Positions 19,242-55,156 of a stretch of DNA of 64,000 nt are shown here, one piece after another (the stretch's first letter is position 1; each line of letters opens with the position of its first letter). The position numbers and the translations under genes are program-made. This DNA comes from Patescibacteria group bacterium (GTDB lineage: Bacteria > Patescibacteriota > Minisyncoccia > UBA6257 > HR35). The notes beneath the pieces were generated by a model. It had not been told where the DNA came from. It saw nothing but the letters and a program-made list of their open reading frames with translations, and searched no databases. The stretch covers positions 234,838-298,837 of the forward strand of contig JAUQQN010000001.1 in assembly GCA_030549845.1 (NCBI GenBank), written 5' to 3'.

Positions 19242-19296
19242 TTTACTAAAGTAGTTATGATAATTAAAAAAGTACAGTTTTCTGCACCTCAGCAAG

Positions 19297-22221
<2,925 letters not shown>

Positions 22222-22421
22222 TTGCTGAGGTACAGAAAACTGTACTTTTCATCAATTACTTTCTTTGTAAATTTAATATAAGGGTGCTATATCCACTTTT
22301 ATTTCTCTAGCTTCTTTGGCTATATTTAGAATAAAAATAAAAGAAAAAATTCAATAACCCTCAAATCTTATCTTTCTTACTAAAATTAATTATATATTAA
22401 ATGTTGATAAATTTCAAGCAA

Positions 22422-23477: not shown

Positions 23478-24041
23478 ATGCAAATTTTAGAAAGACTGGA
23501 AAAACTTAATATAGAGAAAATAGATCAAGAAAGGTTAAAAAATTTCTTTTCTAATTTAACCTCTGAAGAGATAGAGGTAATTTTAGATTTAGTTAAAAAT
23601 TTAGATTTTTACAAAATACGAATAGAAAATTTAGATATAGATGATGAAGAATTAAAGAAAAACCTGATTGTAAACTTGGCATTTAGAAATGAAGCAAAAT
23701 CAATCTCAAAAGAATTAATCGAAGTTGAGAGAAATCTTTTAAAAACAATTAATACGTTGCCTTCGGAAATAAAAAGAAAAATTTCTATAGCTTATATTTT
23801 AAAAGGATTGCACATTTTGAATTTAAACAAAAATCAAGAAATATTCAAGTACAAAAAGATAATTTTGAAGTATTTCCATGATCTTGGTGGATTTAAAACA
23901 GGACTTTGGGGAATAAAAATTGATTACGATTTATTTGAAAATATAATAGAAAATATCAATGAAGATCTGATCAGAAAATTAGAAGCAAAAAATAGGGTAT
24001 TAAACAAAGAAGAATTTATAATGCTTAGAAATCTATTTTAA
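23478..24041 (+). CDS. Hypothetical protein
   Basis: 187-aa ORF with no recognisable motif, preceded by the structured leader above. Confidence 0.45.
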   Translation: MQILERLEKLNIEKIDQERLKNFFSNLTSEEIEVILDLVKNLDFYKIRIENLDIDDEELKKNLIVNLAFRNEAKSISKELIEVERNLLKTINTLPSEIKRKISIAYILKGLHILNLNKNQEIFKYKKIILKYFHDLGGFKTGLWGIKIDYDLFENIIENINEDLIRKLEAKNRVLNKEEFIMLRNLF

Positions 24042-25277
24042 AAATAAAACCAAAACTCCTCCTAAAAGTAATGACAAAACTAACCCTATAAAAAGAATCT
24101 TAGCATTTATATTTATCAAGCTGCTTTTTAAAGAAGTCGTTGGGAAATTTATGACTTCTTCTTTGCTTTTGTTTGTATTTTGAAGGACTTGCCTATTATA
24201 AAATAAGAAATCTTCCTTTTCTTTATTATCTTCCAATAAGAAAATATTAGGCTTTCCTGGAGTAGGAATGGTCCAATCCCATCTACCATTTTCATCTCTT
24301 GCAAAACTGCGGTTTTCTTTTGCTTTTCCTTCATATTTTATATAAAAAATTTCTTTCCCATTTTCATCCAATAAAGAAATCTCTTCTCCTTTATTTCTTA
24401 TGCTAAAATTAAATTCTTTTTTTGAAAGCACTTTGTATTCCTTAGGAGCTATTACTCCAGATAATTTTATTTTTTTACTTCCAACTTTTAAAGTAACTTT
24501 TTCTAGATTAATAAAATCATCGCTTGGATTAAAAATTTCTATAAATTCTTCTTCGTCTTTTCCTTCGAGATCTGGTAAAAATTCATTTATTATTAAGTAA
24601 ATTGGTTTTTCTTTTATTTCTTGATTTCCTTTATTTACATCTTCGTTTAAAACTTCTTTTTTATTTAATTCAACTTCTTTTATTTCATTCTCTTTTAAGT
24701 ATTGCGGGTTATTTTCAGTTTGTTTTTTATCTTCTTTGGTTCTCGACTCATTTAAATTAAGTCCTTGAACTTCAGGCTCTGGATAAATTCCAGGAGTTCC
24801 TTTTTCTATCCTCCCTTCTTTTATATTTCCATTTTCATTTATTAAAGAAAAACCATTACCATTTCCACCCATTGAAGAGTTATAGTAAAATTCTGCTAGT
24901 ACATTTTTATTTTCATCCAAAATTTTTATTGTACCTTCTTTGTTATTTAAAGATATAGCTGTCTCAAATATTTTTATGCTTGGATCCAAATTGTATTCTG
25001 ATTTAAAAATATTTTTGTCTTTAACAAATAAAAAAATTTCTCCTTTTCTTATAATGGTATTTTCTCCTTTTAAGATTCTGTAATTTTTACCATCAAATAT
25101 TCTCCATCCTCTTTTCCCTGTTTTAATTTCTATATCTGAATCTAAGTTTATAACCTCTATCCATTCTTTATTCTTATCACTTCCTTTTGGATTGTACATA
25201 ACTTCTGTAATAGAGATTTTAGCTAAAGATACTAAGGGAAAAATAAAAACACAATAAATAATAAATAATCTCTTCAT
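24033..25277 (-). CDS. Secreted protein with two lamin-tail (LTD) domains and a C-terminal membrane anchor
   Basis: Signal peptide, then ISITEVMYNPKGSDKNKEWIEVINLDSDIEIKTGKRGWRI and a second LIINEFLPDLEGKDEEEFIEIFNPSDDFINLEKVTL. These match the LTD consensus (I)NE(V)xYxP.G.D..EWIEL.N...D..GW. C-terminal TM LFIGLVLSLLLGGVLVLFLK. Confidence 0.6.
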   Translation of the reverse strand: MKRLFIIYCVFIFPLVSLAKISITEVMYNPKGSDKNKEWIEVINLDSDIEIKTGKRGWRIFDGKNYRILKGENTIIRKGEIFLFVKDKNIFKSEYNLDPSIKIFETAISLNNKEGTIKILDENKNVLAEFYYNSSMGGNGNGFSLINENGNIKEGRIEKGTPGIYPEPEVQGLNLNESRTKEDKKQTENNPQYLKENEIKEVELNKKEVLNEDVNKGNQEIKEKPIYLIINEFLPDLEGKDEEEFIEIFNPSDDFINLEKVTLKVGSKKIKLSGVIAPKEYKVLSKKEFNFSIRNKGEEISLLDENGKEIFYIKYEGKAKENRSFARDENGRWDWTIPTPGKPNIFLLEDNKEKEDFLFYNRQVLQNTNKSKEEVINFPTTSLKSSLININAKILFIGLVLSLLLGGVLVLFLK

Positions 25278-28905: not shown

Positions 28906-28912
28906 AAATTTG

Positions 28913-28987
28913 CGGGGGCGACGGGATTTGAACCCGCGACCTCAGCCTTGACAGGGCTGCGCGCTAACCAGGCTGCGCCACGCCCCC
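28913..28987 (-). tRNA. tRNA-Asp (anticodon GUC)
   Basis: Hand-folded. Acceptor GGGGGCG, anticodon loop CTGTCAA, T arm GCGGG-TTCAAAT-CCCGT, discriminator G. Confidence 0.8.
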
Positions 28988-29143
28988 ATTTTGTTTTTCA
29001 AGTTTTTTGTATTACTTATTAATTATAAACGAAATTTCATTGTATCTTTTAATAACATCAAATTTTGATATAATATTTATTAAGAAATAATTCAAACTAA
29101 ATTAGCAATTTGATGAAGCTTAACAAAAATATAAACTACATAC

Positions 29144-29214
29144 CGCGGGGTGGTGGAGTAGTACCACGCGGGTCTCATAAGCCCGAGGCGCCGGTGCAAT
29201 TCCGGCCCCCGCAA
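29144..29214 (+). tRNA. Initiator tRNA-fMet (anticodon CAU)
   Basis: Hand-folded. Acceptor CGCGGGG/CCCCGCA gives the bacterial-initiator C1xA72 mismatch, and three consecutive G:C pairs in the anticodon stem. It is very similar to E. coli tRNA-fMet at the acceptor and anticodon arm, with an unusual T loop TGCAATT. A TGaTATAAT extended -10 lies about 70 nt upstream. Confidence 0.75.
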
Positions 29215-30906
29215 CACACAAAATCATTTACTTTTATAGAAGTTTTATCTTCAATTTTCATTTTAGGAATTTTAATTAGTGTTTTAATAATTGTTTTAAA
29301 GCCATCGACTATATTTGCTTATTTAAGAGATAAAAAAAGATTACATGATTTAAATTTGTTGGAATTTTCCATTAAATCAGCTTATTTGGAAAACCCTGAA
29401 TTATTTTTATCTCTTGCTACTAATACTATTTATATTTCCTTACCCGACGAATCACCATTCTGCAGTAAATGGCTATCTAAATTACCGCCTTTACCTTCTG
29501 GGTGGTATTATAAATGTTCAAATGATCCTACAAATATAACCTCTGGTTGGTTGCCTTTAAATTTGAGTAAAATAGGGCTTTTTAGCTTAAAAAAGCTACC
29601 GATAGACCCAATTAATAATGAAAATTTTTATTATAGTTTTGTAATTTCTAATAATGGCTTTGAGATTACATCGAGGCTTGAGAAGGAAATAGGATCGGAT
29701 TCCATAGCTGGAAATGATGATGGAGATAATTTATATTTTTATGAAGTGGGGACAGACAAAAAAGCCATGCCCCAAATGGCCCAAAGGGATCCTTATTTAG
29801 TACTTTATTGGAGTTTTGATGAAGGTAGCGGTTTTTATGCATACGACTATTCAGGAAATCAACAAACAGGGGTCCTTCGCAATTTTAGAGAAGTAATTTC
29901 TGATATGGAATCATTAAGTAATTGGTATGAACCAAATTATTATATTACTTTAGATTCTATAAATAAAATAAGTGGAAATTTTTCATTAAAATTAGATTTA
30001 GAAAATAACCAACCCCTGCCAAATACTACTTATACAATTTCTTATATTCCGCCTTCTCCTATCGATTTTTCTAATGCATACGATGTAGCTTATTACCTAA
30101 ATTACAACACTTCTACCAATTATATATCTTCTGCTCGGTTAATTATTTATGATCAAAACAATAATTATAGATATTGGAATATAGGAGTTAATAGGTATTG
30201 GCGTTTGTACTCATATTCTTTGTCTTATTATTCAGGACAAACCCCAATTCCTCCAAATCTTTCTTCTATTGCAAAAATAGAATTTCAATTCAAAACAGGA
30301 AGTAGTGTTGGTCCTTTTTATATTAATTTAGATTTATTAGCTTTTACCAAAGATACAAGTCCTAGATGGGTTGATGGTCGCGTTGGAAAAGCTATTGAAT
30401 TTGACGGGATTGATGACTACGTTTATTTTTACACAACTTCATCTATATTTATGCAATTCAACAATTCTAACACATCAATGACTAGCTGTTTTTGGTTAAA
30501 AAGGTATAGAACATTAATATGGGAAATACCCCTAAGAAGAGACCCTAATGAATTTTGGTGGGTTTCTATTTCTAGTAGTAATAACTGGATATATTTTTAT
30601 ACGGCTGGTAGTACTGCAATTAGAACTGATCTTCCTAATGTATTAGATAGAATAAATATATGGTACCATTTATGTGTTGTTTATGATGTAAACCAATCTG
30701 ATGGTTATAGATCTAAAATTTATTTAAATGGCCAATTAGTAGCAAGAGGTAATCCAGTACGTGCTTCTGGGGGTACTTATTCTAGTTTTTCTATAGGCGC
30801 AAGGACTGATGGAGCGCTTGCGTTTAAAGGAGTTATAGATGAAGTAAAAATTTACAATAAAGCGTTAACTTCCGATGAAATTTTGCACCTATATCAAAGT
30901 TATTAA
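29194..30906 (+). CDS. Type IV pilin-like protein (class III signal, FTFIE) with a C-terminal LamG/concanavalin-A-like lectin domain
   Basis: KS-FTFIEVLSSIFILGILISVLIIVL prepilin-like N-terminus. C-terminal GKAIEFDGIDDYVYF...WYHLCVVYD...KIYLNGQLVARG...FSIGARTDGALAFKGVIDEVKIYNKALTSDEILHLYQ is a Laminin_G_3 pattern. The start is uncertain: the only in-frame ATG/TTG lie upstream of, or inside, tRNA-fMet, and a GTG at 29194 lies in the tRNA 3' end. Confidence 0.6.
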   Translation: MQFRPPQHTKSFTFIEVLSSIFILGILISVLIIVLKPSTIFAYLRDKKRLHDLNLLEFSIKSAYLENPELFLSLATNTIYISLPDESPFCSKWLSKLPPLPSGWYYKCSNDPTNITSGWLPLNLSKIGLFSLKKLPIDPINNENFYYSFVISNNGFEITSRLEKEIGSDSIAGNDDGDNLYFYEVGTDKKAMPQMAQRDPYLVLYWSFDEGSGFYAYDYSGNQQTGVLRNFREVISDMESLSNWYEPNYYITLDSINKISGNFSLKLDLENNQPLPNTTYTISYIPPSPIDFSNAYDVAYYLNYNTSTNYISSARLIIYDQNNNYRYWNIGVNRYWRLYSYSLSYYSGQTPIPPNLSSIAKIEFQFKTGSSVGPFYINLDLLAFTKDTSPRWVDGRVGKAIEFDGIDDYVYFYTTSSIFMQFNNSNTSMTSCFWLKRYRTLIWEIPLRRDPNEFWWVSISSSNNWIYFYTAGSTAIRTDLPNVLDRINIWYHLCVVYDVNQSDGYRSKIYLNGQLVARGNPVRASGGTYSSFSIGARTDGALAFKGVIDEVKIYNKALTSDEILHLYQSY

Positions 30907-33004: not shown

Positions 33005-33448
33005 ATGACGTCGAAAAAAGTTTTATTTGCTTGTTTTACAATATTTTTGATATTTACTAGTTTTGTCCTGTCACCAACTAAAGCAGACATTGAACCTTTG
33101 TATTTTGATGAAACTGTATTCGAAAATTTAAAATTTAAATTAAGCAATTCAACAAAGAAAATTTTTATTGTTACAGTTACAGGCTATTCTTCGAGTTATG
33201 ACGAAACTGACGAAACGCCATATATAACTGCAAGCGGTGATTTTGTAAATGATGGGATAGCAGCATCTAATTTTTTGCCTTTTGGAACAAAAATTAAAAT
33301 ACCATCATTATTTGGAGATAAAGTTTTTATTGTAAAAGATAGGATGAATAAAAGATATTATTTTAGAATAGATATTTGGTTCCCAACAAAAGAAGAGGCT
33401 TTGAATTTTGGTATTCATTATAACGTACCTATAGAAATAGTTGATTAA
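33005..33448 (+). CDS. Secreted 3D-domain protein (MltA/YocH-like peptidoglycan-binding / lytic domain)
   Basis: Signal peptide, then TGYSSSYDETDETPYITASGDFVNDGIAASNFLPFGTKIKIP...IDIWFPTKEEALNFGIHYNVPIEIV, matching the 3D-domain consensus TAY..TASG...G.VAVD..IPLGTKV.I...IDIF..T..EA..FG. Confidence 0.65.
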   Translation: MTSKKVLFACFTIFLIFTSFVLSPTKADIEPLYFDETVFENLKFKLSNSTKKIFIVTVTGYSSSYDETDETPYITASGDFVNDGIAASNFLPFGTKIKIPSLFGDKVFIVKDRMNKRYYFRIDIWFPTKEEALNFGIHYNVPIEIVD

Positions 33449-35127
33449 GTTAAAGTACCTGCAACTCTTTCTACTTCTTCTATTGTTGTTATTTGTTTTA
33501 ATGCTTTTATAAGTCCTGCTTGTTTTAGGTTTATAAACCCATCTTTAATAGCTTGTTCTAGAATTGCGAATTCAGATGGTTTTTCATATATAATTTTTGC
33601 CATATTTTCTGTAATCTTCAAAAGCTCAAATATAGCAACCCTTCCTTTGTAACCTAAATAAAGACATTTTTCACAACCTTTAGCTTTAACTAATTTTATA
33701 TTCTCTAAATCTAGATTTTCTAAAACCTCTTTAGGGACAGTTTTTATAGTGTTTACTATAATATCTTTTAATTTATCATCTGGTTCAAATTCCTCCTTAC
33801 AATAATTACATGCCCTTCTTAATAATCTTTGAGCTATTACTAACCTTAACGCAGGTGGTATTAAGGTTTTTTCCACCCCTAAATCGATAAGTCTTGGAAT
33901 TGCTCCTAATGAATCATTTGTATGTAAAGTTGATAAAACTAAATGACCTGTTAACGAAGCATGAATTGCGATTTCTGCTGTTTCTTTATCCCTTATTTCT
34001 CCTACGAGAATTACGTCTGGGTCTTGCCTTAAAATTGATCTTAACCCATTTGCAAATGTATAATTTTCAGCTTCATTAACTTGGGTTTGCGTAATTCCTT
34101 CTAATTTATATTCTATTGGATCTTCTATTGTGATGATCTTTATTTCTGGTCTTTTAATTTTATTTAATATTGCATATAAAGTAGTGGTTTTTCCTGACCC
34201 AGTTGGCCCGGTATTTAAAATTAAACCATTTGGTTGCCTTATATAATATTCAATTATTTTTTTATCATAATCTTCCAAACCCAAGCTTTCCAAGGGCAAC
34301 ATTATTTTTTCTATATCTAAAATTCTCATAACAATGGTTTCATCATAACTACTTGGAATAGTGCTTACTCTGATTTCTATGTTTTTTTTACCTAAATAAA
34401 TGGAGAATCTTCCATCTTGTGGTTTTTCTGTAATATTTAAATAAAGCCCAGCAAATAATTTGATTCTATTTTTTAAGAGGCCATATATTGATTTATTAAA
34501 ATTTGCAATTTCATACAAAATTCCGTCAATTCTTAATTTAACAACTATATTTTTCTCTGTTGGTTCTAAATGAATATCAGAAGCATCAAATTTAATAGCT
34601 CCACCAACTAAATAATCTAAAATATCAAGTGGGTTTTCTTTTTCGAGTTCTCTTAAAATTTTCTTTAAATCTTCTTTAACCTGAAGAGAATTTAAAATAT
34701 TATTTAATTTTTCTTGATCAATTTCTAGAATTTCTGTATATTTAACTTTTTTGGTTTTAATATACTTATACTCTTGCCAGGCTTTTTCTAGGCTTCTTTT
34801 AGAAACCACTCCTATTTCAACTATAAAATCTTGTTTCTTAAGTTCGTCTAAGAATTTTTTCAGCTCTTTATCTAATGGATTGAGCGCTCCGATTATTAAT
34901 TTTTTCCCATATTTTTCAATGCCTACTATATTTAACTTTTTTGCTATATCTTCTGGAATTATTTTTAATGCATCTGGATCAACTGGATGAAATTTTAGGT
35001 TAAAATATTTTAATTGAAGCATGGAAGCTAATCTTTGTGCTAAGCTTTCTTCTTCCTCTTCTTGTAATTTATTTAAAAATTCTTGTAATTCATCACTCAT
35101 TTCAAAAATAATTATAATTCTTAACAA
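33445..35127 (-). CDS. pilB: Type IV pilus / type II secretion assembly ATPase (PilB/GspE family)
   Basis: Walker A GPTGSGKTTTLYAIL, Asp box, His box (LVLSTLHTND), and a C-terminal tetracysteine CNYC...CEKC. Confidence 0.85.
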   Translation of the reverse strand: MLRIIIIFEMSDELQEFLNKLQEEEEESLAQRLASMLQLKYFNLKFHPVDPDALKIIPEDIAKKLNIVGIEKYGKKLIIGALNPLDKELKKFLDELKKQDFIVEIGVVSKRSLEKAWQEYKYIKTKKVKYTEILEIDQEKLNNILNSLQVKEDLKKILRELEKENPLDILDYLVGGAIKFDASDIHLEPTEKNIVVKLRIDGILYEIANFNKSIYGLLKNRIKLFAGLYLNITEKPQDGRFSIYLGKKNIEIRVSTIPSSYDETIVMRILDIEKIMLPLESLGLEDYDKKIIEYYIRQPNGLILNTGPTGSGKTTTLYAILNKIKRPEIKIITIEDPIEYKLEGITQTQVNEAENYTFANGLRSILRQDPDVILVGEIRDKETAEIAIHASLTGHLVLSTLHTNDSLGAIPRLIDLGVEKTLIPPALRLVIAQRLLRRACNYCKEEFEPDDKLKDIIVNTIKTVPKEVLENLDLENIKLVKAKGCEKCLYLGYKGRVAIFELLKITENMAKIIYEKPSEFAILEQAIKDGFINLKQAGLIKALKQITTIEEVERVAGTLT

Positions 35128-39998: not shown

Positions 39999-40115
39999 AT
40001 GAATACGGTTAAAAAGAAAAAAAAGAAAACAGGATTTTTAGCAAGGTCAAGTTATAAAGCAGGGAGAAAAATTTTGCAGAGAAGAAGGAGAAAAGGTAGG
40101 AAAAGATTAGCTTAA
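39999..40115 (+). CDS. rpmH: 50S ribosomal protein L34
   Basis: My translation: MNTVKKKKKKTGFLARSSYKAGRKILQRRRRKGRKRLA (cf. E. coli ...[30 protein letters not shown]). It is divergent from dnaA and below the ORF-track size cut-off. Confidence 0.85.
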   Translation: MNTVKKKKKKTGFLARSSYKAGRKILQRRRRKGRKRLA

Positions 40116-40453
40116 TGCTTCCGAAAAAATATAAATTAAAGAAAATAGACTTTGAAAATATTTTTAAAGTGGCGAAAAAATTTAATAATGAATATTTTGT
40201 GGTTTTAAAAGTAAATAAATTAGAAAAAAAATTTGGAGTATTTCCAAGTTTAAAAGAATTTAAAAAGGCGGTAGAGAGAAATAAAATCAAAAGGAGGATA
40301 TTTGAAATTATAAGATTAAATTTTGATAAAATACCTTTAGGGTGGTTTTTAATTTTTCCAAAAAAGAATTGTTTAAAATTAAACTTTGAAGAATTAAAGA
40401 AAAAATTGTTAGAAATAATTATTAACATAAAATCCACAAATTATTCACAATGA
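40115..40453 (+). CDS. rnpA: Ribonuclease P protein component
   Basis: KAVERNKIKRRIFEII RnpA motif. It overlaps the rpmH stop (TAATG). Confidence 0.85.
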   Translation: MLPKKYKLKKIDFENIFKVAKKFNNEYFVVLKVNKLEKKFGVFPSLKEFKKAVERNKIKRRIFEIIRLNFDKIPLGWFLIFPKKNCLKLNFEELKKKLLEIIINIKSTNYSQ

Positions 40454-42742: not shown

Positions 42743-43837
42743 TTACTTAAGGTTAACTTTACCAATTTTACAGACTGTTATATAAGAAGGTTTTATTGAT
42801 GTGGCATTATTTAAATCTCCTTTACCGAAACCAGCAAATAGATCCAACCAAGCATCAGCTCCATTTTTTAACCCACCACCTGTATCAGTAACTATCAAAA
42901 TTTTACTGAAATTAGGATTACAAGAAATTTGAGTCCCATCTTTTTTATTGCACGCTAAAACCTTTAGGATATCAAAAGCATTAAAAACCATATCATTTCT
43001 ATTATGAGCTACAGTTATAAGAGGAATTAATGGGCCATAACTTCCATAAATTTTCCCAGTAAATGACTTTCCAACACTATCTGCTGTAGTTATAGCTTTG
43101 TTTTCATCTAAAACATCTTTGTTCTTAATTGATTCTTTTTGGGATGACATTGCTGCAGGACAATTATGAGGAGGATTTCCTGTGACTTTAATCCAAGTCC
43201 ATTTCCAACCATATCTACATTTATCTAATTCTTCCCCTGATTTTTTAGATTCATTTAAAATTTGTATCCCATCCAAGGCATTTAATACTTTCTTTGTTCC
43301 AGCAGATCCAAATAACCCTGTTCCTTGCAGGGTGACATCAGAAGAAAACTTATGCCAATTATATGTATCTTCATAAAAAGGAATATAATAAGTTGTTAAT
43401 CTAACCAAATAATTTTTAGATTTACATTCTCTTTGTTGTAATTGATTTATTTCTTCTTGCGGAATTCCTGTAACAGATATGGTGTAATCTAAATAATTTA
43501 TAGTAGTAGTGGTAACAGCAACATTTATTGATGGAAGTTGAATGTTAATTATTTTAAACATTATTAATCTTGCATTAAATATTTCTGGGTTTATCCAATA
43601 AAGCAAAACACCAGAAGAAAAAATAACAATTAAGCCTATAATAGAATTTCTCATCTGTCTTTTGCCTTCCATTTTTATATCAGGCACAACACTTAATAAG
43701 TTCTTAAAAGCTCCTATAAAAAACATAATAAAAGCAATAACAACAGCTAAAGCTACTATTAAGTTATAAATAGCTTGAATACATCCTTGTATAGTAACAC
43801 AACTTGAAGCAATAAACTGTTGTATATCTGGTATCAT
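42743..43837 (-). CDS. Membrane-anchored protein with a C-terminal 3D-like (MltA-fold) domain; putative peptidoglycan hydrolase of the T4SS-like cluster
   Basis: Long hydrophobic N-terminal segment (QAIYNLIVALAVVIAFIMFFIGAF). C-terminus VRLTTYYIPFYEDTY...ILIVTDTGGGLKNGADAWLDLFAGFGK resembles the 3D-domain blocks TAY...DTGGAIKG..IDLF. Confidence 0.5.
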   Translation of the reverse strand: MIPDIQQFIASSCVTIQGCIQAIYNLIVALAVVIAFIMFFIGAFKNLLSVVPDIKMEGKRQMRNSIIGLIVIFSSGVLLYWINPEIFNARLIMFKIINIQLPSINVAVTTTTINYLDYTISVTGIPQEEINQLQQRECKSKNYLVRLTTYYIPFYEDTYNWHKFSSDVTLQGTGLFGSAGTKKVLNALDGIQILNESKKSGEELDKCRYGWKWTWIKVTGNPPHNCPAAMSSQKESIKNKDVLDENKAITTADSVGKSFTGKIYGSYGPLIPLITVAHNRNDMVFNAFDILKVLACNKKDGTQISCNPNFSKILIVTDTGGGLKNGADAWLDLFAGFGKGDLNNATSIKPSYITVCKIGKVNLK

Positions 43838-44544
43838 TTTTCTATTTTTATTTGGTCTGAGCTAAATTCAATTGGATTATCTATATTTGTAACAATAACC
43901 TTTACTTCGCTTCCATTTTCGAGCCCTTCGGGATCAAATAAAAGGCTGTAATAAAATTTATTAAAAACATTCCAAGCAATTGATAAGTTATCTGAAGAAA
44001 AATTAAATGTCAAAGGAAAAAGTTTTTCATTTTTTTCGATTCTTCCAAAAGGCAAAACTACATTAAGTTCTTCTAAGTACCTTACAATAGAAACAGCAGG
44101 CAAATTTTTTTGTTTAAAAACAAAACTATATTTCTTGTCAAAACTTAAATCATTTGAATAAATTCTTACTTTTCCTGAAAGAAGTTTATTTTTTGATTCG
44201 AAGTGCAAAAGTGGTTTATGGGTCTCATACGTTGCTTGGCTTCCTTCAAAAAATAATACCCATTCATAATTTAATAAATCAGGCTTATATTTAGAAAAAT
44301 CTGCTTCAATTCCTATTAAATACTTATCTCCATTTTTCTGAAACGAAAAATAAGCAAAATCTTTTTGAGAAAAAACAAGGCTATAAGAAAAAAGCGAGAA
44401 AATAAAAATTATGAGTAAAATTTTAATAAATTGTGAATTAATTTTCATAAAATTATTATAAAATATCAAATGGTTTCTCCAATTACTTCTTCTTGTTGCT
44501 TTTTTACTTCTTTCTTTAATGACCTTAATCTTTTCACTCTCCAA
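43834..44544 (-). CDS. Hypothetical N-terminally anchored protein
   Basis: 236-aa ORF with an N-terminal TM helix. No motif. Confidence 0.4.
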   Translation of the reverse strand: MESEKIKVIKERSKKATRRSNWRNHLIFYNNFMKINSQFIKILLIIFIFSLFSYSLVFSQKDFAYFSFQKNGDKYLIGIEADFSKYKPDLLNYEWVLFFEGSQATYETHKPLLHFESKNKLLSGKVRIYSNDLSFDKKYSFVFKQKNLPAVSIVRYLEELNVVLPFGRIEKNEKLFPLTFNFSSDNLSIAWNVFNKFYYSLLFDPEGLENGSEVKVIVTNIDNPIEFSSDQIKIEK

Positions 44545-45005
44545 AGCCTTCCTCTAGAAACTAGCATTGTTAATGTTTTTATTGGAGCAATTTCTATTAA
44601 GCTTCCTATTATTGGAATAAAACCAAAGAATTCTATCGCAACTAAGAAAACATAAACACCTCCTTCAATTTGAGAAAGGTATCCATTTTTAGTATAATAA
44701 AATATCAAATATAAAAACAGTAAGGCTCCAGGTATCTCAAAAATCAAAGGAATGATTCCTAAAATACTTAAAGCTCCTGCACTTGCTAACCCTATTATAC
44801 TAAATATAAATTCAAAAATATCTGCTGTTATTAATAAAATAAAGCTTAGATACCAAATCCAGCTTATATAATGAGGTTCTTCCTCTTCTTCAGTTGTCTC
44901 TTCAAATTTTTTTAATCTTCCTGATTTTTGTAAATAATCTTCTTTTTTCTCTTCGGTGTAATCTAATTTTTTAATTTCAGAATTTGTTTCAAACACTGCC
45001 TTCAT
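44466..45005 (-). CDS. Small polytopic membrane protein immediately upstream of the VirB4-like ATPase
   Basis: Acidic N-terminus, then three to four TM helices (ISWIWYLSFILLITADIFEFIFSIIGLASAGALSILGIIPLIF...). Confidence 0.45.
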   Translation of the reverse strand: MKAVFETNSEIKKLDYTEEKKEDYLQKSGRLKKFEETTEEEEEPHYISWIWYLSFILLITADIFEFIFSIIGLASAGALSILGIIPLIFEIPGALLFLYLIFYYTKNGYLSQIEGGVYVFLVAIEFFGFIPIIGSLIEIAPIKTLTMLVSRGRLWRVKRLRSLKKEVKKQQEEVIGETI

Positions 45006-46798
45006 TGATTTTTCAAAGCTTCTTTTATTGCCATTAATTGCTCTAGGGAAGCTTTAATTATTTGATCTTCAGCATAAGATGCTAAAACATACAAAGGAAT
45101 TCTTTTAAGACCAGCAATTAAAATTCCTCTTCCTCTTTCAGCTTGTATTAAAAATCTTTTTTCGCCTTCAGATAAGGCAAATACTTGGCCTACTGTATCA
45201 ATTGTTGTTGGTGATTGTTTCATTAAAAATGTAAGTGCAGAGTTTGTAATTATAGGCTTACCATAAGGAGAGCTCAAAAAATCATCTATATCTTGAGTTA
45301 TTGTGGTTATTCCTAAAAGATATTTCCTACCTCTTTTTATTGCATTAAGCAAAAAATTAGCACCTGATTCATTTTTCATTATCCACCATGCTTCATCTAT
45401 TATTAAAATTCTTTTCTTTCTTTCTCTTCTTATTTTATTCATTAAATCATTCAAAACAATATACATACCAATAGGTCTTAACTCTTCTACTAAATCTTTA
45501 AACCCAAAAACAACTATTCTCTTTTTAAGATCAACATTTGTTGGTTGATTAATAAAACCACTAAAACTACCCTGAGTAAATGGATATAATTTTTCAGCTA
45601 TAGACTTACCTCCTTCTATACTTAAAAGAACTTTTTCTAAGTCATTTAATGTAGGGAAAACTTCTATTTTTCCAAAATCTGTATCAGGTAAAATATTAAA
45701 GGAAGCATACGTTTGGCTTATTGCTCTATCTAATATAGTAAGTTCTTCTGCGTTAAATTTCTCACCTGCTATAACTTCTAAAAGTCCAATTATATCACTA
45801 ACTTTTTCTTTGTATACATCTTCAGGATTTTCTCCCTCAAGTAAAGGAGGTAAATCAAGAGGGTTAATTTTGTGCTCTGATCTTAAAGAAATTGGTATAA
45901 AAGATCCTCCATAAACTTCAGCTATTGATTGATATTCATTTTCTGGGTCTAACACAATGACATCTTGCCCCATCATTAGATTTCTCATAATTTCAATTTT
46001 TGCAGTATAACTTTTACCTGATCCTGATCTTGCTAAAATTACCATATGAGCATTCTCAAAAGCAAATCTATCGAGAAGAACCAGGGAGTTGTCTTGCAAA
46101 TTAATACCCATCAAAATTCCTTTTTCCATAGACAATTCTGATGAGATAAATGGGAAAAATGAACTTGCGGCAGATGAGTTCATTACATATTCTATTTGAA
46201 GTCTATTAGAATTAAGAGGTAGTGTTGAAAAGAAAGCATCTTCTTGTTCAAATATAATTGGTTTTGCAACAATTAAATTACTTTCTAAAATTTTTATAAT
46301 TCTTTTTTCTTTTAATAATAATTCATCTTTATCTTCAGAAAATATAGTAAGATATAAAGCAACATTAAATATCTTTTCTCTTCCTTGTACTATAGCATCC
46401 CTTAATTCCTCTATATCATTGTAGGCTGTTTCAAGTTGTGGGTCTCTAGGCAAGCCTTTTTCTTCAATTTCTATTAATTGACTTTCTACTCTTAAAAGCT
46501 GTTTTTGTAATTGCTTAAGAATAACTCCAGGATCTCTAGGAACAAAATAAATCGAAAGATTAAAAGGCTCTTCTAATGCTAAAAGATTTTCTAACCAACC
46601 AGCAAACAAAAATCTTGGATAAGTAATTATAGCTATAACCTTTCCATAAACTTCTCCTATTTGAAAATCAGATACCCCAAATAAAGCTCCTGGAGGGGCT
46701 ATTATATTTTTTATTTTCTCAAAACCTTTTGCCTCCTCGATTTTAACGATAGGAATCCCTTTATTTGTTTGTTGGAAAAATGGTAATTTGAATGCCAT
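45002..46798 (-). CDS. VirB4/TrbE/CagE-family type IV secretion ATPase (short, 598 aa)
   Basis: Walker A VILARSGSGKSYTAKIE, Walker B RILIIDEAWWIMK, C-terminal ITTITQDIDDF, and an N-terminal VirB4-like domain. Confidence 0.8.
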   Translation of the reverse strand: MAFKLPFFQQTNKGIPIVKIEEAKGFEKIKNIIAPPGALFGVSDFQIGEVYGKVIAIITYPRFLFAGWLENLLALEEPFNLSIYFVPRDPGVILKQLQKQLLRVESQLIEIEEKGLPRDPQLETAYNDIEELRDAIVQGREKIFNVALYLTIFSEDKDELLLKEKRIIKILESNLIVAKPIIFEQEDAFFSTLPLNSNRLQIEYVMNSSAASSFFPFISSELSMEKGILMGINLQDNSLVLLDRFAFENAHMVILARSGSGKSYTAKIEIMRNLMMGQDVIVLDPENEYQSIAEVYGGSFIPISLRSEHKINPLDLPPLLEGENPEDVYKEKVSDIIGLLEVIAGEKFNAEELTILDRAISQTYASFNILPDTDFGKIEVFPTLNDLEKVLLSIEGGKSIAEKLYPFTQGSFSGFINQPTNVDLKKRIVVFGFKDLVEELRPIGMYIVLNDLMNKIRRERKKRILIIDEAWWIMKNESGANFLLNAIKRGRKYLLGITTITQDIDDFLSSPYGKPIITNSALTFLMKQSPTTIDTVGQVFALSEGEKRFLIQAERGRGILIAGLKRIPLYVLASYAEDQIIKASLEQLMAIKEALKNQ

Positions 46799-47427
46799 TA
46801 TTCCTCTAATGACTCTATTAATTCTTCAAACAATTTTATTGGAGCAAGCCCCCATCTTAAGCTAGGATTGTACATCTCATACAAAAGCTGCAAAAGTTCA
46901 TAATTATTTAATCTTATTGGTTGAAGTCCAATAGCAGAAAGTTTTTCTGTTATATAAATAACCCTAGTCTCTAATTGCTCTAATTTTGTATAAAATTCCT
47001 CTTCTTTAATTTTTGTTTTTTTACCAAATTTTTTTATTTCAATTACTTCTCCCTCATATGGTACAACAATATAAAATATTTTTTTCATTATTTTGTGGGT
47101 TTCTACATAGCTTTGTATAAATTTAATGTATTCTTCTAGTTGTAATTTAATCAATGGTTCATCTTCTACTTCAAGTCTTTCTTTTAAGTAATTTAAATAA
47201 CCCTCTATATACGCATACCTTGAAACAACTAATATTTGTAAATTAAAATCTAGCCCATCTAGAAATTCTTTAAAAGCACCAACTACTGCTTCCTTTTCTT
47301 GTTCTGAAAGTAATGTAAAATTAATTCCCGGAACAGCTAAAATAGCTCTTAAACTTCCATCTTCTAATATAAGAGTGTCATTTTTTATATCTTTTACTTG
47401 TATTAAAGATGCAGTTGTTTTTACCAT
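46798..47427 (-). CDS. Hypothetical cytoplasmic protein within the T4SS-like cluster
   Basis: 209 aa, no TM, no motif. Confidence 0.4.
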   Translation of the reverse strand: MVKTTASLIQVKDIKNDTLILEDGSLRAILAVPGINFTLLSEQEKEAVVGAFKEFLDGLDFNLQILVVSRYAYIEGYLNYLKERLEVEDEPLIKLQLEEYIKFIQSYVETHKIMKKIFYIVVPYEGEVIEIKKFGKKTKIKEEEFYTKLEQLETRVIYITEKLSAIGLQPIRLNNYELLQLLYEMYNPSLRWGLAPIKLFEELIESLEE

Positions 47428-47948
47428 CTTCTTTTAGGAAATTTTGGAATAGGGAAATTAATATAAGGATTAAAAGGATTATAACCTCTTTCTATAGCTT
47501 TTTTTACATATACAGCTAAAGATTTATTTACTTCTTTTTCTTCTTTTGGTTTTTCATAACTTACAAGAGGGAGCTCTTTTTGTGTTTCAGTTTCTGTTAT
47601 TTCTTCTAATTCAATATATTTTTCTAAGAGAGGAGATTTTATATATTGAGTAGTAATTTTAACTTCTTCTTTCCATATATATTTTTTAGGAGATAATAGA
47701 ATCATGATAAGTTTTGGAAGAAAGGCATAAATATATTTATTATTTATTTTCAACCAACCTATAATAAAAGCTGCTAAAACAATAATTCCAGAAAGAAATA
47801 CTGCAATAAAGCCACCAAATAATTTAAATGTAGCAAAGGATAACAAAAATGCCCCAAAACTTATAAAAAGCTGAGGAAATGTAAAAGAAATCATTCCTAA
47901 ACGTAATTTATCTTCTATTGTTATATATTGTGGTACACTAAATCTCAT
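47421..47948 (-). CDS. PrgI-family (VirB3-like) small membrane protein
   Basis: MRFSVPQYITIEDKLRLGMISFTFPQLFISFGAFLLSF matches the PrgI N-terminal pattern (VP..I...EDKL..GLT.RQ) followed by two TM helices. Upstream of the VirB4-like gene, as in Gram-positive conjugative T4SS. Confidence 0.55.
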   Translation of the reverse strand: MRFSVPQYITIEDKLRLGMISFTFPQLFISFGAFLLSFATFKLFGGFIAVFLSGIIVLAAFIIGWLKINNKYIYAFLPKLIMILLSPKKYIWKEEVKITTQYIKSPLLEKYIELEEITETETQKELPLVSYEKPKEEKEVNKSLAVYVKKAIERGYNPFNPYINFPIPKFPKRRW

Positions 47949-47956
47949 TAAAATAA

Positions 47957-48595
47957 TTATAAATTAGAAAGATCTAAAACTTCTCCCTCTTTTTTTTCTT
48001 CTTTTGGTTTTTTGATTACCACAATTTTAGAAGATATATCCTCAGTTGGCTTAGGAGGCTCCCAAGAAATCGTTTGTTTTATATCAATTGTAGATTTAGG
48101 AACTTCTGTCTTTATTTGTTGGAGTTTAGATAAATCTATGGGAGTAGTTGGCTTAGGAACCTCGATTGCTTCTTTTGTTTTTACTACTTTTTGTAAATTT
48201 AGAATTTTTTGTGGTGGAACTTCTTTGGCTTTCTGTATTAGATCAATCACTTCTTTTGGCACTTCTTTTTTGATTTTTTGAGTCTTTTCTTTCTCTTCTT
48301 TCCATAATGGTTCTACAAGTGGCAGGAATCTTGCTTTTATATGATATTCTAATTGTTTAGCTTTTTCTGTATCATAATTTAATCTATTTCTAATAATTTC
48401 CGTTAAGCTTTCTTTTTCTAAATCAAATCTTTTTATTGCTAAATCTTGCAATAAATAAATAAATTCAACCTCATATTCATCACTAATTTCAAATTTCTTT
48501 TTATATTCTTCAAAAAAAGAATAAAAATCATCAGAATATAAAAATTCTTTTACTCTATCTGGTGCTTCTGTATATGCATCTATAAATGATTTCAT
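47957..48595 (-). CDS. Hypothetical protein
   Basis: 212 aa with a K/E-rich C-terminal half. No motif. Confidence 0.4.
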   Translation of the reverse strand: MKSFIDAYTEAPDRVKEFLYSDDFYSFFEEYKKKFEISDEYEVEFIYLLQDLAIKRFDLEKESLTEIIRNRLNYDTEKAKQLEYHIKARFLPLVEPLWKEEKEKTQKIKKEVPKEVIDLIQKAKEVPPQKILNLQKVVKTKEAIEVPKPTTPIDLSKLQQIKTEVPKSTIDIKQTISWEPPKPTEDISSKIVVIKKPKEEKKEGEVLDLSNL

Positions 48596-48619
48596 TTTTA
48601 AATATTATAAAAATAAATT

Positions 48620-51118
48620 TTATGTAGAACTTGCACCACCACCCCCTCCAGTAGATTGGGCTGATTCAGATTTTTCTTTTTCTCTCGCCTCTTCTAGTGC
48701 CCGAATTCTTTCCTCAATTTCTTCTCTTTCTCTTCTAGCTTCTGCCCTATAAGGTCTTTCAAAAATCCCAGCAATCTTTTCAAGCAGAGGAGTTAATTCT
48801 TCGGGATTTGAAAGTTGGACACCTTGTTTTTGTATTAATTGTTGTAATTGTACGATTTCTTGTTGTAGGTCATGTATTTCTTCAAGTCTTTGCTGTAATT
48901 CGGTTTTTCTTTGGTTCAAGTTAATTTTTTCATCTTCACTTGCTCCTTGTATTTCCCCATCTATGGCTTGTATTTCTTGGTTTAATGAATTAATTTCTCT
49001 ACCTAGTTCTACTTCAATACCTTTTAATATCTGCTGTAGGTCTATTTTCCCAATAAGTTTTTGAGGATCTTTTGCCCAATCTTTTACTGTCTTATGTGAT
49101 ATTTCTCCTTGAGAATAAGAACCCATTAGTTGTCTTCTAATCTCTTCTTCTAATTTTGGTTGAAGCGTATCTGGTATTTTTTGGCCTCCAATCACTAACC
49201 TCTGAGCTATTTGTGGTCCTAGCTCTCTTATACTTCTTGCAGCTGGAGAAGCTCTAATAATTCCTTGAAGTCGTTGTGGACCTATATTTCTTTCGACATC
49301 TTGATAAATACCTAAATCATGTAAATACTTTAAATTCTTTGGATTCCAGAATATATCATTTAAATCTCTACCAGAAGTAAACATAAAATAATTGGATAAT
49401 AATGTTTTAACTTCAGCCTCATCTGCTCCAGCTTTTCTAAGTAAAGTTCCTATTGTTTCTAATCCAACCTCGCGATGACTAATAATTTCTGGAAGGGTTG
49501 ATAATACCTCAGCTCGTTTTTCTCTTCCTTCAGTAATTTTTGTTAAAATACATCTTAATTTCTTACCACATAATGCTTTACGAGTACTTAAATCTAATTT
49601 ATCCCAATCCAAAATACTAGCAATTTTAAATAGTTCATCTGCACTTAGTTTTGAATTCATTACTTTAGCTAATTCTTCTTTGAATGGTCCTCTATATCTT
49701 TCAAATATTCCAGCAATCTCTTCAGGGCTTTTACCTTCCATGTGGTCACTGAAAATAGCTTCAGCTTCTTTTTTAACTTTTTCCTTTGTTGGTTTTTCTA
49801 ATTTTTCACCTACTCCTTTGGTCCATAACCCTAAACTTCTAATGAATCCAACCCTACTTTTTTCTAAAGCTTTTCCTATAGTAGAAATTCCTCCTCCTAT
49901 TTTTGATATAGCTGGTCTTACTGTCCACATTCCTACTCCTGCTGCAGCAGCACCAGCCAATCTCCAACCTTTCAATGCCAATCCATAAGTATAATTTGCA
50001 AAAACACCTCCTAAACTTAAAGAAACTTTCATTACAATATAGAAATAAAGAACAAGGAAAACAAATTTAGTAGAGACAGCAAAGAAAATACTTAAAGTAG
50101 TTTTTTCACTTTCTTCTAGTCCTGCTATAGGTTCTGCTTCTAATGAAGGTTTCATTAAATTTTGTAATTTCTCTTCATTAAATGCACCAGTTATGCCTTC
50201 TGTTTTTGTTGTTGCAACTAAAGCTACTCCTATTAAAATTAAGACAATTAAAATCAAAACATTGACTGTCCAATTTAGAAACCATTGCCACCAAGTATTC
50301 CAATATTTTTCATATCCAGGTGTTGCATATGCTATAGCAGCTAAAGGAAGTAAGCCTGCTAAAAATCCAATAATAAAGTATCTTCCAATAAATATTCCCA
50401 CAAAAGACCACAAAGTAAGAGAAAATATAAGAGAAAGAACTATACCTACTAAATTAGCTACTATATTTAATGCTCTTCTTAAAGCTGCTGCTTGATCTGG
50501 AGTTAGATCAGTTTGATATTTAGTAGCATTTTCAATCATTCCTTTTAATTGTTCTGTTATAAAACCTGGAGGTACAGCATTAAATATTGCATAAATCAAT
50601 GTACCTAATTTTGAAGAGTTATAATTTTCAGTCATTAAATTTGCAGAAAGCAAAATACTTCTTTGTATAAAATTGATTGTTCCAAAAAATACTTTTGCTA
50701 AAAGAAACGAAAAGTTTATTAAAAATGCTATAAGTATTACACCGAATAAAATCCTTCTCGCCTGGTCTTCTTTATTTAAGATCCAATTAATTCCTGAATA
50801 TAATGCTAAAAATACTAAAATTACATAAGATAGATTTTTGAAGAATTCCCATAAAAATGATGCAAGCCCTCCTTCTTCAAATGGATTTAAAACGCTGAAT
50901 ATGTCTATAATAATTCTTGCTAGTCTTGCGAAGATATTAAAAAGAAAAATCACTCCGGTTAAAACAATATAAGATACATAATCTATTATTCCAAAAACAA
51001 GCGCAGGAATTTTAGCCCAGAAATAATATCCTAATAAGCCTAATCCCAAAGCTCCAAGTAAACTTAGCCCTATAACTACCCAAACCACTGCTTTATTTTT
51101 TAATTTTTGATTTTTCAT
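48620..51118 (-). CDS. Large polytopic membrane protein (VirB6/TrbL-like candidate) with long coiled-coil C-terminal domain
   Basis: 832 aa. At least six predicted TM helices in the N-terminal 400 aa, then a hydrophilic coiled-coil region ending in STGGGGGASST. Confidence 0.5.
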   Translation of the reverse strand: MKNQKLKNKAVVWVVIGLSLLGALGLGLLGYYFWAKIPALVFGIIDYVSYIVLTGVIFLFNIFARLARIIIDIFSVLNPFEEGGLASFLWEFFKNLSYVILVFLALYSGINWILNKEDQARRILFGVILIAFLINFSFLLAKVFFGTINFIQRSILLSANLMTENYNSSKLGTLIYAIFNAVPPGFITEQLKGMIENATKYQTDLTPDQAAALRRALNIVANLVGIVLSLIFSLTLWSFVGIFIGRYFIIGFLAGLLPLAAIAYATPGYEKYWNTWWQWFLNWTVNVLILIVLILIGVALVATTKTEGITGAFNEEKLQNLMKPSLEAEPIAGLEESEKTTLSIFFAVSTKFVFLVLYFYIVMKVSLSLGGVFANYTYGLALKGWRLAGAAAAGVGMWTVRPAISKIGGGISTIGKALEKSRVGFIRSLGLWTKGVGEKLEKPTKEKVKKEAEAIFSDHMEGKSPEEIAGIFERYRGPFKEELAKVMNSKLSADELFKIASILDWDKLDLSTRKALCGKKLRCILTKITEGREKRAEVLSTLPEIISHREVGLETIGTLLRKAGADEAEVKTLLSNYFMFTSGRDLNDIFWNPKNLKYLHDLGIYQDVERNIGPQRLQGIIRASPAARSIRELGPQIAQRLVIGGQKIPDTLQPKLEEEIRRQLMGSYSQGEISHKTVKDWAKDPQKLIGKIDLQQILKGIEVELGREINSLNQEIQAIDGEIQGASEDEKINLNQRKTELQQRLEEIHDLQQEIVQLQQLIQKQGVQLSNPEELTPLLEKIAGIFERPYRAEARREREEIEERIRALEEAREKEKSESAQSTGGGGGASST

Positions 51119-54100: not shown

Positions 54101-54423
54101 ACTTTTCCAATTAGTGAACCTAAAATAGATTCTACTGCTTCAATTATTAAACTGGATAAGAAATCTCTAATCAAGCTTTCAAAAAACCCAGGGCCTTTTG
54201 GAAGATTCCCGGCAAAAGCGTCTAATTCTGTTATATAATCAGTTGTTGATGTTGAAAATTCTTCGGTTTCTTCAATTTCAATAGGTTTTAAATTGCATTG
54301 TAATTTATAAGAAGATAAATCAATTTTTTCAGGGAAATCATCTGATTGAGAAAATATAAATCTTACTGGCAAGGCATTGAATAAAATAACAAAGATTATA
54401 AAAATTGATAAAAATTTTTTCAT
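51115..54423 (-). CDS. Giant secreted coiled-coil protein (1102 aa) with C-terminal membrane anchor
   Basis: Signal peptide MKKFLSIFIIFVILFNALPVRFIFSQ, long helical/coiled-coil stretches, and a C-terminal hydrophobic segment IFNIGVGFLANIFEIINIF. Confidence 0.5.
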   Translation of the reverse strand: MKKFLSIFIIFVILFNALPVRFIFSQSDDFPEKIDLSSYKLQCNLKPIEIEETEEFSTSTTDYITELDAFAGNLPKGPGFFESLIRDFLSSLIIEAVESILGSLIGKVPVGAPETNKAIASSIKEATKNVLASIKTSIHLALQDALQYFKFQLINKLNEFIYGRILKNYIKDIEAYRNFKIFLEHQRVFNRIFNKYKEQPCIPEELKGCLINLLYSTKDLSYEVARNAENSIKLMGFLNAFYKYQEFNIASKRICEKYEEQQVYKNLELIQPASLQEENLYSLKKPETYVAKIEKPSFKMLANIFGTIKNKLNFKKLLAQIYPDSEFSAIQTIFFDYNKPILDAAKISNCLLIQDRYAAALIEALNKEHEQFQTQIQQPGGLTFKPKTQCLKTWADVEYEEVSRQLEDAMLKGDKTQIDKLDKKLQEIKQKIEAQKDIPGEDPNCLIPGPTLSSPADYEKLKEQILTSPLEIFKSQERATNVLVAFIRSWLSSKLFKIIDKGFASLEARSSSNSSYMADIKNAYRPERVNVVCNEFQVVSIPGSQQVCKSAMESQLRKITEIEKGNLIGLNSRVINIVKAINQLMNNIQDYTSTSERSKNEIDNIIQKLKEEQTTESIERLNEIVYNFKNLENELNEISNSISSNTTTLEKLINQNILNQIDSITASYTEKINKLDEQINSIKSQIDNLIREINSKISQSLYGASNLYSNKIAIFFERYIDLERPPLDLDDNYFPRDYIAVATGTKIYRVGEGTKYTDCAPSLGKREKLSFFNDFYPTHITNCMKDKDYEFFRRRFHYSQLDTDFHDGTDWKYGYQQPEYKIYFIVHDLIHIFYSLYNSPASKSGIQQENLVMASYNFLTNLITNPPSTTPEAIQNDLNKLYDYFNALENYASNTMEYAKRTNILEWEFAISKVPNKWSAEKGEAIYLRMDESLELILKTSKAFKEVIELYRNSTQQNQDFWTKLQELNNLQQQKDQLIQEMQKETDKIWEDYLSQFKPEEIQSIQTNIEQNLDRINEKIEEINNLCEEYNSLIDKIEEEINNKLIQQQEEELPAEESTSQSLPEKTQRVSLIKRIFNIGVGFLANIFEIINIFKPKKIYIK

Positions 54424-55079: not shown

Positions 55080-55084
55080 AGTTG

Positions 55085-55156
55085 AGCCAGTAGCGGGATT
55101 CGAACCCGCAACCTACCGCTTACGAAGCGGTCGCTCTACCATTGAGCTATACTGGC
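55085..55156 (-). tRNA. tRNA-Thr (anticodon CGU)
   Basis: Hand-folded. Acceptor GCCAGTA/TACTGGC, anticodon arm ACCGC-TTCGTAA-GCGGT, T arm GCGGG-TTCGAAT-CCCGC. Confidence 0.8.

Follow-up and report, generated by a model that had tools for sequence, protein, structure and literature searches.

The joining of tRNA genes to coding sequence is familiar from the tRNA punctuation of mitochondrial transcripts and from tRNA-mRNA co-transcripts such as that of the E. coli thrU-tufB operon. Leaderless and Shine-Dalgarno-independent initiation has been described in Actinobacteria, Deinococcus and archaea (PMC3160421, PMC4633059), and among modular type IV pilins the combination of a pilin with a PF13385 domain (IPR012902+PF13385) is one of the commonest architectures and is widespread (Raynaud et al. 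2021, PMC8179133). Modular pilins have also been listed from bacteria of the Candidate Phyla Radiation (CPR; PMC8179133), and one that has been studied is Streptococcus sanguinis PilC, which carries a concanavalin A (ConA)-like lectin module (PMC8179133, PMC9934059). Here we describe a locus in a 64,000-nt stretch of a Patescibacteria group bacterium (contig JAUQQN010000001.1 of assembly GCA_030549845.1, positions 234,838 to 298,837; hereafter the window) at which the gene for a pilin with a laminin G (LamG) lectin domain directly abuts the gene for the initiator tRNA, tRNA-fMet, and lacks its own start codon. Such pilin-lectin adhesins have been known before, and it is in the expression logic that the locus is unusual; we put the chances at about even that this is a working gene translated from a start inside or upstream of the tRNA.

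The predicted product resembles S. sanguinis PilC in its class III signal, its alpha1 helix, its small pilin head and its grafted ConA/LamG lectin module, and also in its predicted role as a tip-exposed adhesin. It is unlike PilC and the catalogued pilins in that its LamG domain is split by a beta-sandwich resembling a carbohydrate-binding module (CBM), in the Ser at position -1, in the lack of any sequence match to solved pilins, and in a gene that is without its own start and abuts tRNA-fMet. The open reading frame (ORF) occupies 29110-30906 of the forward strand, corresponds to 598 aa if counted from its TTG, spans the whole tRNA gene (Table 1) and is preceded by an in-frame stop at 29098-29100. 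The tRNA shows the hallmarks of an initiator when read from the sequence, namely a C1xA72 mismatch and a GGG/CCC anticodon stem (three G:C pairs) flanking CUCAUAA, and its gene does not encode CCA. The earlier note had claimed that no start codon lies between the end of this tRNA at 29214 and the FTFIE motif at 29227, and the sequence bears this out: just CAC ACA AAA TCA (H-T-K-S) separates the tRNA from the Phe codon, with no ATG, GTG or TTG in 29215-29226 and hence no Met-initiated leader directly ahead of the cleavage site, and is followed by TTT ACT TTT ATA GAA (FTFIE) and a hydrophobic helix. A frame scan likewise recovered the in-frame starts that had been listed, TTG 29110 and ATG 29113 upstream of the tRNA and GTG 29194 inside it, and no others. 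The two other frames across the tRNA contain stops, at 29178 and 29159, and no start codons; the pilin frame is the single frame across the tRNA that is both open and start-bearing.

The tRNA-fMet itself is closely conserved in related genomes, being identical at locus L012 and differing at L002 by one compensatory T-stem pair. Its elbow is odd, with the D loop AGUAGUA (A18 for the usual G18) and the T loop UGCAAUU (G55 for U/pseudouridine), and is kept in the sister clade described below, while the remaining tRNAs of the window carry the standard TTC. A18/G55 could be a covarying substitute for the G18:Psi55 tertiary pair.

How the start came to be missing can be read from relatives. A homologue search of a 5.8-billion-protein set returned near-identical copies together with orthologues about 61% identical, the closest match among species-representative genomes being a 62%-identical orthologue in a metagenome-assembled genome (MAG) labelled Candidatus Saccharibacteria. 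The start-less clade consists of the window and L005, L006, L009, L010 and L011, at nucleotide identities of 99.1-99.98%. In its sister clade (L001, L002, L003, L004, L007 and L012, among others) tRNA-fMet is followed at every locus by an AT-rich spacer of 8-12 nt, an ATG and four leader codons ending in Ser, the spacer being CAATTTTTATTT (12 nt) with the leader MKNKS/F, CAATTTTTTT (10 nt) with MQQKS/F or CAATTTCT (8 nt) with MKNVS/F, where the slash marks the predicted cleavage site. In the window clade no spacer is left (0 nt), and the last four leader codons follow straight on from the discriminator base of the tRNA. Comparison of the junctions indicates that the ancestral state is an ATG behind tRNA-fMet and that a small deletion in the window clade removed the spacer and the ATG.

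The surroundings are otherwise shared, the gene order at all loci being SerRS, hypothetical, hydrolase, tRNA-Asp (-), tRNA-fMet (+), pilin-LamG, FolD, SHMT, hypothetical, PilB and penicillin-binding protein (PBP). In the sister clade a tRNA-Ala(CGC) lies 1 nt past the pilin stop (7714-7784 in L002, and likewise in L001, L003, L004, L007 and L012), and the pilin ORF is thus bracketed by two tRNAs; the window clade is without this tRNA, and the convergent folD overlaps the pilin stop by 4 nt (30903-30906). Upstream, the distance from the promoter element TGATATAAT to the tRNA is 17 nt in L002 as against 70 nt in the window, and the clade-specific extra 5' segment is what supplies TTG 29110 and ATG 29113.

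The start-less gene carries a clear record of selection. Of the 32 sites that segregate among the start-less strains in the 1,677-nt ORF, 20 are synonymous and 12 non-synonymous; neither indels nor stops occur. In 20,000 simulations that preserved mutation types, neutrality predicted 8.3 +/- 2.4 synonymous changes (and 23.7 non-synonymous), and not one run reached 20 (binomial p = 1.5e-5); 1.55 new stops were expected, as against none observed among these strains. Third codon positions hold 20 of the 32 polymorphic sites (p = 7e-4), neighbouring housekeeping genes have a ratio of synonymous to non-synonymous changes that is not significantly different (Fisher p = 0.16), and omega against the intact orthologue is 0.21, with neighbouring genes at 0.09-0.30; FolD, SHMT, PilB and SerRS are 71-79% identical between the window and the intact-orthologue lineage. 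The polymorphisms postdate the shared deletion, and they show that purifying selection on the pilin-lectin ORF has outlived its start; barring import of the variants by recombination, the reading frame is therefore still read. The 559-codon ORF is whole in the window, L005, L009, L010 and L011, and the partial L006 has no stop in the 463 mature-protein codons that it covers; of the nine distinct sister sequences that carry the ATG, roughly three are broken, compared with none among the start-less assemblies. Relative-rate tests with six outgroups found no acceleration on the window branch (e.g. 39 versus 48 unique changes), which rules out long-term decay along it.

Where, then, could translation begin? 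No Shine-Dalgarno signal is evident in the genome: 53 of 60 ORFs lack such a sequence within 20 nt, a number equal to that at random positions. Nine of the 60, compared with 1.2% of background positions, have a perfect TATAAT that ends 7-11 nt ahead of their start codon (p = 4e-8). Leaderless or near-leaderless mRNAs therefore seem to be common in this genome, which in its missing Shine-Dalgarno enrichment and its TATAAT close to starts is like the described leaderless systems. The pilin gene departs from them in that only a weak -10-like hexamer, TAAATT, stands at leaderless distance from ATG 29113, which probably lies about 30 nt inside a transcript driven by the conserved TGATATAAT. A position-weight model of start context, trained on 35 confident starts of the genome, placed TTG 29110 at the 34th percentile of true starts with a score of 0.0, ATG 29113 at the 23rd (-1.4) and the near-cognate ATA at 29236 at the 37th (0.2), while GTG 29194 scored -11.6, below all 35 true starts, the 25 nt upstream of it being 72% G+C compared with a genome mean of 19%.

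Several other routes to a start were considered and set aside. A Shine-Dalgarno sequence for GTG 29194 (GAGG, 5 nt upstream) was rejected, as the genome does not use such signals and the GAGG belongs to the conserved tRNA sequence, recurring in the sister clade; intron-like excision of the tRNA with re-ligation was rejected, as its length of 71 nt puts ATG 29113 out of frame; and frameshifting from, or an ATG near the junction in, the other frames was rejected, as both of these stop and are start-less. Folding of the RNA from 29081 to 29290 gave a minimum-free-energy structure of very low ensemble frequency and was uninformative on start-site accessibility. By elimination, ATG 29113 or TTG 29110, reached by reading through the tRNA, is the most likely start, although as a specific assignment we offer it tentatively. 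A start at GTG 29194 is less likely, being possible but poorly placed, and we regard it as doubtful. The earlier note had left the gene two options, overlap with the tRNA or an unusual start, and we arrive at the same place, now with the loss of the orthologous ATG, six assemblies and purifying selection behind it.

It is possible to sketch how such a gene might work. In the ancestor, with no Shine-Dalgarno sequence and an ATG 8-12 nt behind the tRNA, the pilin would have been expressed from the tRNA's own transcript. The junction fits tRNA punctuation, in that gene and tRNA abut on one strand and leave no space between them for a promoter, terminator or ribosome-binding site, and like mitochondrial transcripts the sister-clade ORF lies between tRNAs, so that their excision would free near-leaderless mRNAs. 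The window clade is unlike the mitochondrial case: its trailer, 5'-CACACAAAAUCAUUU..., contains no AUG, so punctuation alone cannot account for expression. Upon deletion of the spacer and ATG, initiation would have shifted to an in-frame upstream start, and the ribosome would pass through the tRNA sequence on transcripts not yet cut by RNase P and RNase Z, the tRNA possibly still being excised once the ribosome has passed. Prepilin peptidase would then remove the leader after Lys-Ser, making the odd tRNA-encoded sequence cost-free; with a start at ATG 29113, 24 tRNA-encoded residues would be discarded in this way. The proposed leaders, 38 aa from the ATG or 11 aa from the GTG, both fall within the range of the family. 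Of the tryptic peptides predicted from the prepilin, NINYIPR, GGGVVPR and GSHKPEAPVQFRPPQHTK, the first two are specific to the leader that begins at the ATG or TTG.

In its fullest form the proposal is that a complete and functional initiator-tRNA gene lies within a translated prepilin leader, one transcript serving as both pre-tRNA and adhesin mRNA, and in that form we consider it a possibility short of a probability. If true, it would be a rare natural case of same-strand, full-length overlap between an essential tRNA gene and a bacterial coding sequence, in which the two fates of the RNA are mutually exclusive or sequential. It is tempting to speculate that the output of the adhesin could be tied to the making or processing of the very tRNA needed for its own initiation, and that a gene whose leader peptide is cleaved off could thereby be cushioned against losing its start codon.

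A number of points weigh against translation from within or upstream of the tRNA. A very stable tRNA would need to be unwound by the ribosomes, and nine of the codons across it, although all occur elsewhere in the genome, are rare and G+C-rich; passage of the ribosomes would also compete with the maturation of what is possibly the sole initiator tRNA of the cell. From base composition we estimate the chance of an in-frame upstream start at ~0.2-0.4, and the 1-in-3 match of frame is weak support. The segment 29075-29226 is without polymorphism, so coding constraint there is not assessable, and recombination with unsampled ATG-bearing strains is a conceivable source of the polymorphisms downstream. 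About one in three sister-clade populations (L003/L004, L007 and L030) have a disrupted orthologue, and the gene is therefore dispensable in some settings. Neither a prepilin peptidase (A24) nor PilC was found in the 64-kb window by a six-frame motif scan and Pfam searches of 41 ORFs. Finally, in L006 the base at position 3035, equivalent to 29228 of the window, is changed from T to G, the sole difference across its 4.4-kb contig, and this replaces Phe+1, a residue invariant in 50 relatives, with Cys.

The L006 change was considered as the origin of a replacement start and rejected: the new ATG, 11 nt past the tRNA, is out of frame, opens an ORF of only 17 codons and is accompanied by no compensating indel. 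It sits about where the ancestral ATG stood. The contig (JAVZIH010000057.1 of GCA_038998185.1) is filed under a MAG labelled Candidatus Aenigmatarchaeota archaeon and is probably mis-binned, to judge from its 99.98% identity to a bacterial window with DnaA, PBP, YidC and RnpA.

The alternative that best survives, and one that the earlier note did not raise, is that the gene is a very recent pseudogene or is silent, the deletion having ended translation with too little time since for decay, or the polymorphisms having been recombined in. The ancestral start is indeed lost and nothing canonical follows the tRNA, L006 has the Phe+1 to Cys substitution, many members of the cluster are fragments lying on long contigs, and sister orthologues have been broken independently: the L003/L004 pilin has a +1 frameshift in an A-run (A6 to A7, at ~5766 of L003), L007 has two frameshifts (a C insertion and G4 to G3, at sites matching 6226 and 6985 of L002) plus Glu5 to Lys, and the L030 gene is truncated. 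The disrupted copies have dN/dS values of 0.16-0.35 against an intact copy, and since the broken L007 is still at 0.16 versus L002, a low ratio can outlast inactivation briefly; together the disruptions and the low ratios point to recurrent recent inactivation or to switching of a phase-variation-like kind. Against a dead gene stand all 32 of the post-deletion polymorphisms, with their 20:12 split where 8.3 synonymous changes were expected (p ~1e-5) and their freedom from stops and indels, an ORF that is intact in every start-less assembly as far as covered, and a branch without rate acceleration. On balance we find this explanation rather unlikely.

In a further alternative, which we think quite improbable, the processed trailer would be translated from a non-canonical start past the tRNA, the AUA of codon Ile+4 (29236, in frame) being one candidate. 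The resulting protein, beginning Met-Glu-Val-Leu, would have no leader to be cleaved, and instead of a processed pilin it would be a lectin anchored in the membrane. Consistent with this, ORFs begin 0-5 nt after tRNAs elsewhere in the window and processed trailers are probably near-leaderless mRNAs, the genome lacks a Shine-Dalgarno signal, the context of the ATA resembles that of many true starts by the score given above, and the L006 change from Phe to Cys would be neutral if Phe+1 were untranslated. However, AUA is a very poor start codon in bacteria, and leaderless initiation requires a 5'-terminal AUG. The AUA at 29236 is separated by 21 nt from where the 5' end is predicted. The family's Lys-Ser/Phe-Thr-Phe-Ile-Glu site is moreover kept intact in the window and four assemblies (L006 having Cys at +1), and a product starting at +4 would misplace the Glu5 that is needed in pilus assembly.

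That the bases of a true ATG are simply missing from the window through a sequencing or assembly artefact can be dismissed for practical purposes, even though orthologues carry the ATG and the difference is merely 11-15 nt, because the identical junction, tRNA + CACACAAAATCA + TTT, is present in 6 of 6 start-less assemblies (the window, SRR21619495, SRR21619494, SRR27730044, SRR27730019 and GCA_038998185.1, independent assemblies from at least five runs or records) that differ elsewhere by 0.02-0.9%. The earlier note had proposed that orthologues with a conventional ATG and a Gly-Phe leader would imply such an error; the ATG is there, the leader is Ser-Phe instead, and the error is contradicted by the six assemblies.

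Table 1. Features of the pilin-LamG locus and its assembly and processing neighbours, in window coordinates
Feature	Position	Strand	Remarks
tRNA-Asp	28912-28987	-	Divergent boundary of the shared promoter region; ARAGORN, Rfam
Extended -10-like promoter element, TGATATAAT	29066-29074	+	Read from the sequence, conserved in the sister clade; putative function
AT-rich 5' leader of the tRNA precursor	29075-29143	+	Clade-specific; ~55 nt longer than that of the sister clade; contains TTG 29110 and ATG 29113
Proposed leader-peptide coding region, MKLNKNINYIPRGGGVVPRGSHKPEAPVQFRPPQHTKS	29113-29226	+	38 codons; crosses the entire tRNA; putatively translated
tRNA-fMet (anticodon CAT)	29144-29214 (end 29214/5)	+	ARAGORN; Rfam 58.3 bits
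Alternative GTG start	29194-29196	+	tRNA positions 53-55; start in the NCBI annotation of L006; leader MQFRPPQHTKS
Remnant of ancestral leader, H-T-K-S	29215-29226	+	Lys-Ser end typical of the family; from comparison with sister junctions
Type IV pilin module, mature residues 1-190	29227-29796	+	F1, E5, hydrophobic alpha1 helix (residues 2-55), beta-sheet head
First LamG strands (LVLYWSFDEGSG...YDYSGN...GVL), mature residues 191-223	29797-29895	+	Contiguous with the remaining LamG in shorter homologues
Domain inserted in LamG, mature residues ~224-377	29896-30357	+	Beta-sandwich behind a low-confidence linker; absent from shorter homologues
LamG main body, mature residues 378-559, and stop codon (30904-30906)	30358-30906	+	PF13385
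PilB/GspE-type assembly ATPase	33445-35127	-	PF00437 T2SSE, E 3.7e-118; 2.5 kb downstream
RNase P protein gene	40115-40453		

An AlphaFold2 model of the product has a mean predicted local distance difference test (pLDDT) score of 79.7 and a predicted template-modelling score (pTM) of 0.70, and over residues 1-190, where pLDDT is mostly 85-95, a long helix is followed by a compact beta head, in the manner of a pilin fold. The N-terminus gives only a weak GspG/ComG match and scores 17.7 bits against PF07963 (N_methyl; cut-off 21.2), which many homologues pass in precomputed annotation, and about 50 homologues carry a prepilin-type annotation. The C-terminal domain is matched by PF13385 (Laminin_G_3) at residues 435-591 with E 1e-19 and 71.6 bits (cut-off 27.6), covering profile positions 4-150 of 151, and the first LamG strands carry the conserved motif YWSFDEGSG...YDYSGN. 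When the whole model was compared with the PDB using Foldseek, the AbnA domain 4 was recovered (5hon_A; E 2e-9, TMt 0.64, root-mean-square deviation 3.6 over 194 columns), with further fold matches to the lectin domains of trans-sialidases and the HcN domains of clostridial neurotoxins. A sequence search of the PDB returned marginal LamG-type matches only and no solved pilin relative. The domain nested in the LamG, modelled alone (pLDDT 64.5), matched the CBMs of a GH50 agarase and a mannanase as well as CBM11 and CBM16 (E ~2e-4, TM ~0.5), and is tentatively CBM-like.

The product is likely a modular minor type IV pilin, and would probably act as a glycan-binding adhesin at the pilus tip. The pilin-like N-terminus and C-terminal LamG domain that the earlier note had recognised, and the candidate adhesin that it had drawn from them, all withstand closer inspection: taken together they are upheld by Pfam, structure prediction, fold search and the ~50 prepilin-annotated homologues, and the LamG domain in particular by its Pfam match and by the resemblance of the AlphaFold2 model to ConA-like lectin domains in the PDB.

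The predicted cleavage site of the window, ...HTKS/FTFIEVLSSIFILGILISVLIIVL, fits a class III signal in its Phe at +1, its Glu at +5 and the hydrophobic stretch behind them, and departs from the textbook in the Ser at -1. Bacterial prepilin leaders end in Gly (review, PMC4471445), and PilD cuts after Gly or Ala (review, PMC3244431). Among 50 homologues with a recognisable motif, however, residue -1 is Ser in 42 and Gly in 8, with a family consensus of [KR]-S/FTLIEL and leaders of 4-43 aa. The observation that Ser and not Gly precedes the pilin motif therefore stands, whereas its reading as an anomaly of this gene does not, and Ser at -1 is excluded as a gene-specific oddity: the counts indicate that Ser, unusual among bacteria in general, is what most members of this Patescibacteria pilin-LamG family carry. 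The prepilin peptidase of these Patescibacteria is accordingly predicted to accept Ser at -1, a specificity broader than the Gly/Ala rule. As to the assembly machinery, the order of genes around the PilB-type ATPase is kept in all relatives, and no additional pilins were found within the 64-kb window.

Among the closest known proteins are the prepilin-type LamG proteins of Patescibacteria (P0005-P0092, ~400 aa), whose pilin module is 35-46% identical to that of the window and which share with it the motifs YISLPD, LPxLPxGW, LPIDPIN, YWSFDEGSG and IDEVRIYNRAL and the [KR]-S/FTLIE context. Unlike the window protein they begin with ordinary leaders (4-43 aa) initiated at Met and lack the inserted domain, and one of them, P0047, has no upstream tRNA.

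ORFs follow tRNAs closely at other places in the window. Behind tRNA-Ile (59075-59149, -) the discriminator base is succeeded at once, at 0 nt, by ATG 59077 of an ORF with a signal peptide (MKKLLFLLL...); behind tRNA-Thr (55077-55156, -) an ATG at 55079 comes after 5 nt and opens an ORF with a clear N-terminal signal sequence; and a class I aminoacyl-tRNA synthetase gene (60226-62307) lies 30 nt on from tRNA-Val(TAC) (62305-62409, -). Judged from these arrangements, the expression of ORFs from tRNA trailers looks routine here and would fit the sister-clade arrangement of the pilin gene, which suggests that tRNA processing may define the 5' ends of mRNAs in this lineage of Patescibacteria, much as in mitochondria. 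Within the collection of papers searched, nothing specific was found on leaderless or Shine-Dalgarno-less translation in CPR/Patescibacteria.

The window as a whole is of bacterial composition, at 29% G+C, and also encodes DnaA, DnaN, a class A PBP, YidC and RnpA. A complete 23S rRNA gene lies at 19286-22229 (-); no 16S or 5S rRNA was detected in the 64 kb at gathering thresholds, and the rRNA genes appear to be unlinked. A type IV secretion-like cluster (42743-54423, -) is located directly downstream of tRNA-Thr. Among its products are a T4SS_pilin-domain protein (42743-43837) and a VirB4/TraG-like ATPase (45002-46798), together with several large proteins without a Pfam match (832 and 1102 aa). 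Upstream of the pilin locus the window encodes a Lamin-tail-domain (PF00932) protein of 414 aa (24033-25277, -), of which the upstream versions in the sister clade (L002, L003) exceed 1,250 aa, and these Lamin-tail-domain proteins are further candidates for surface proteins.

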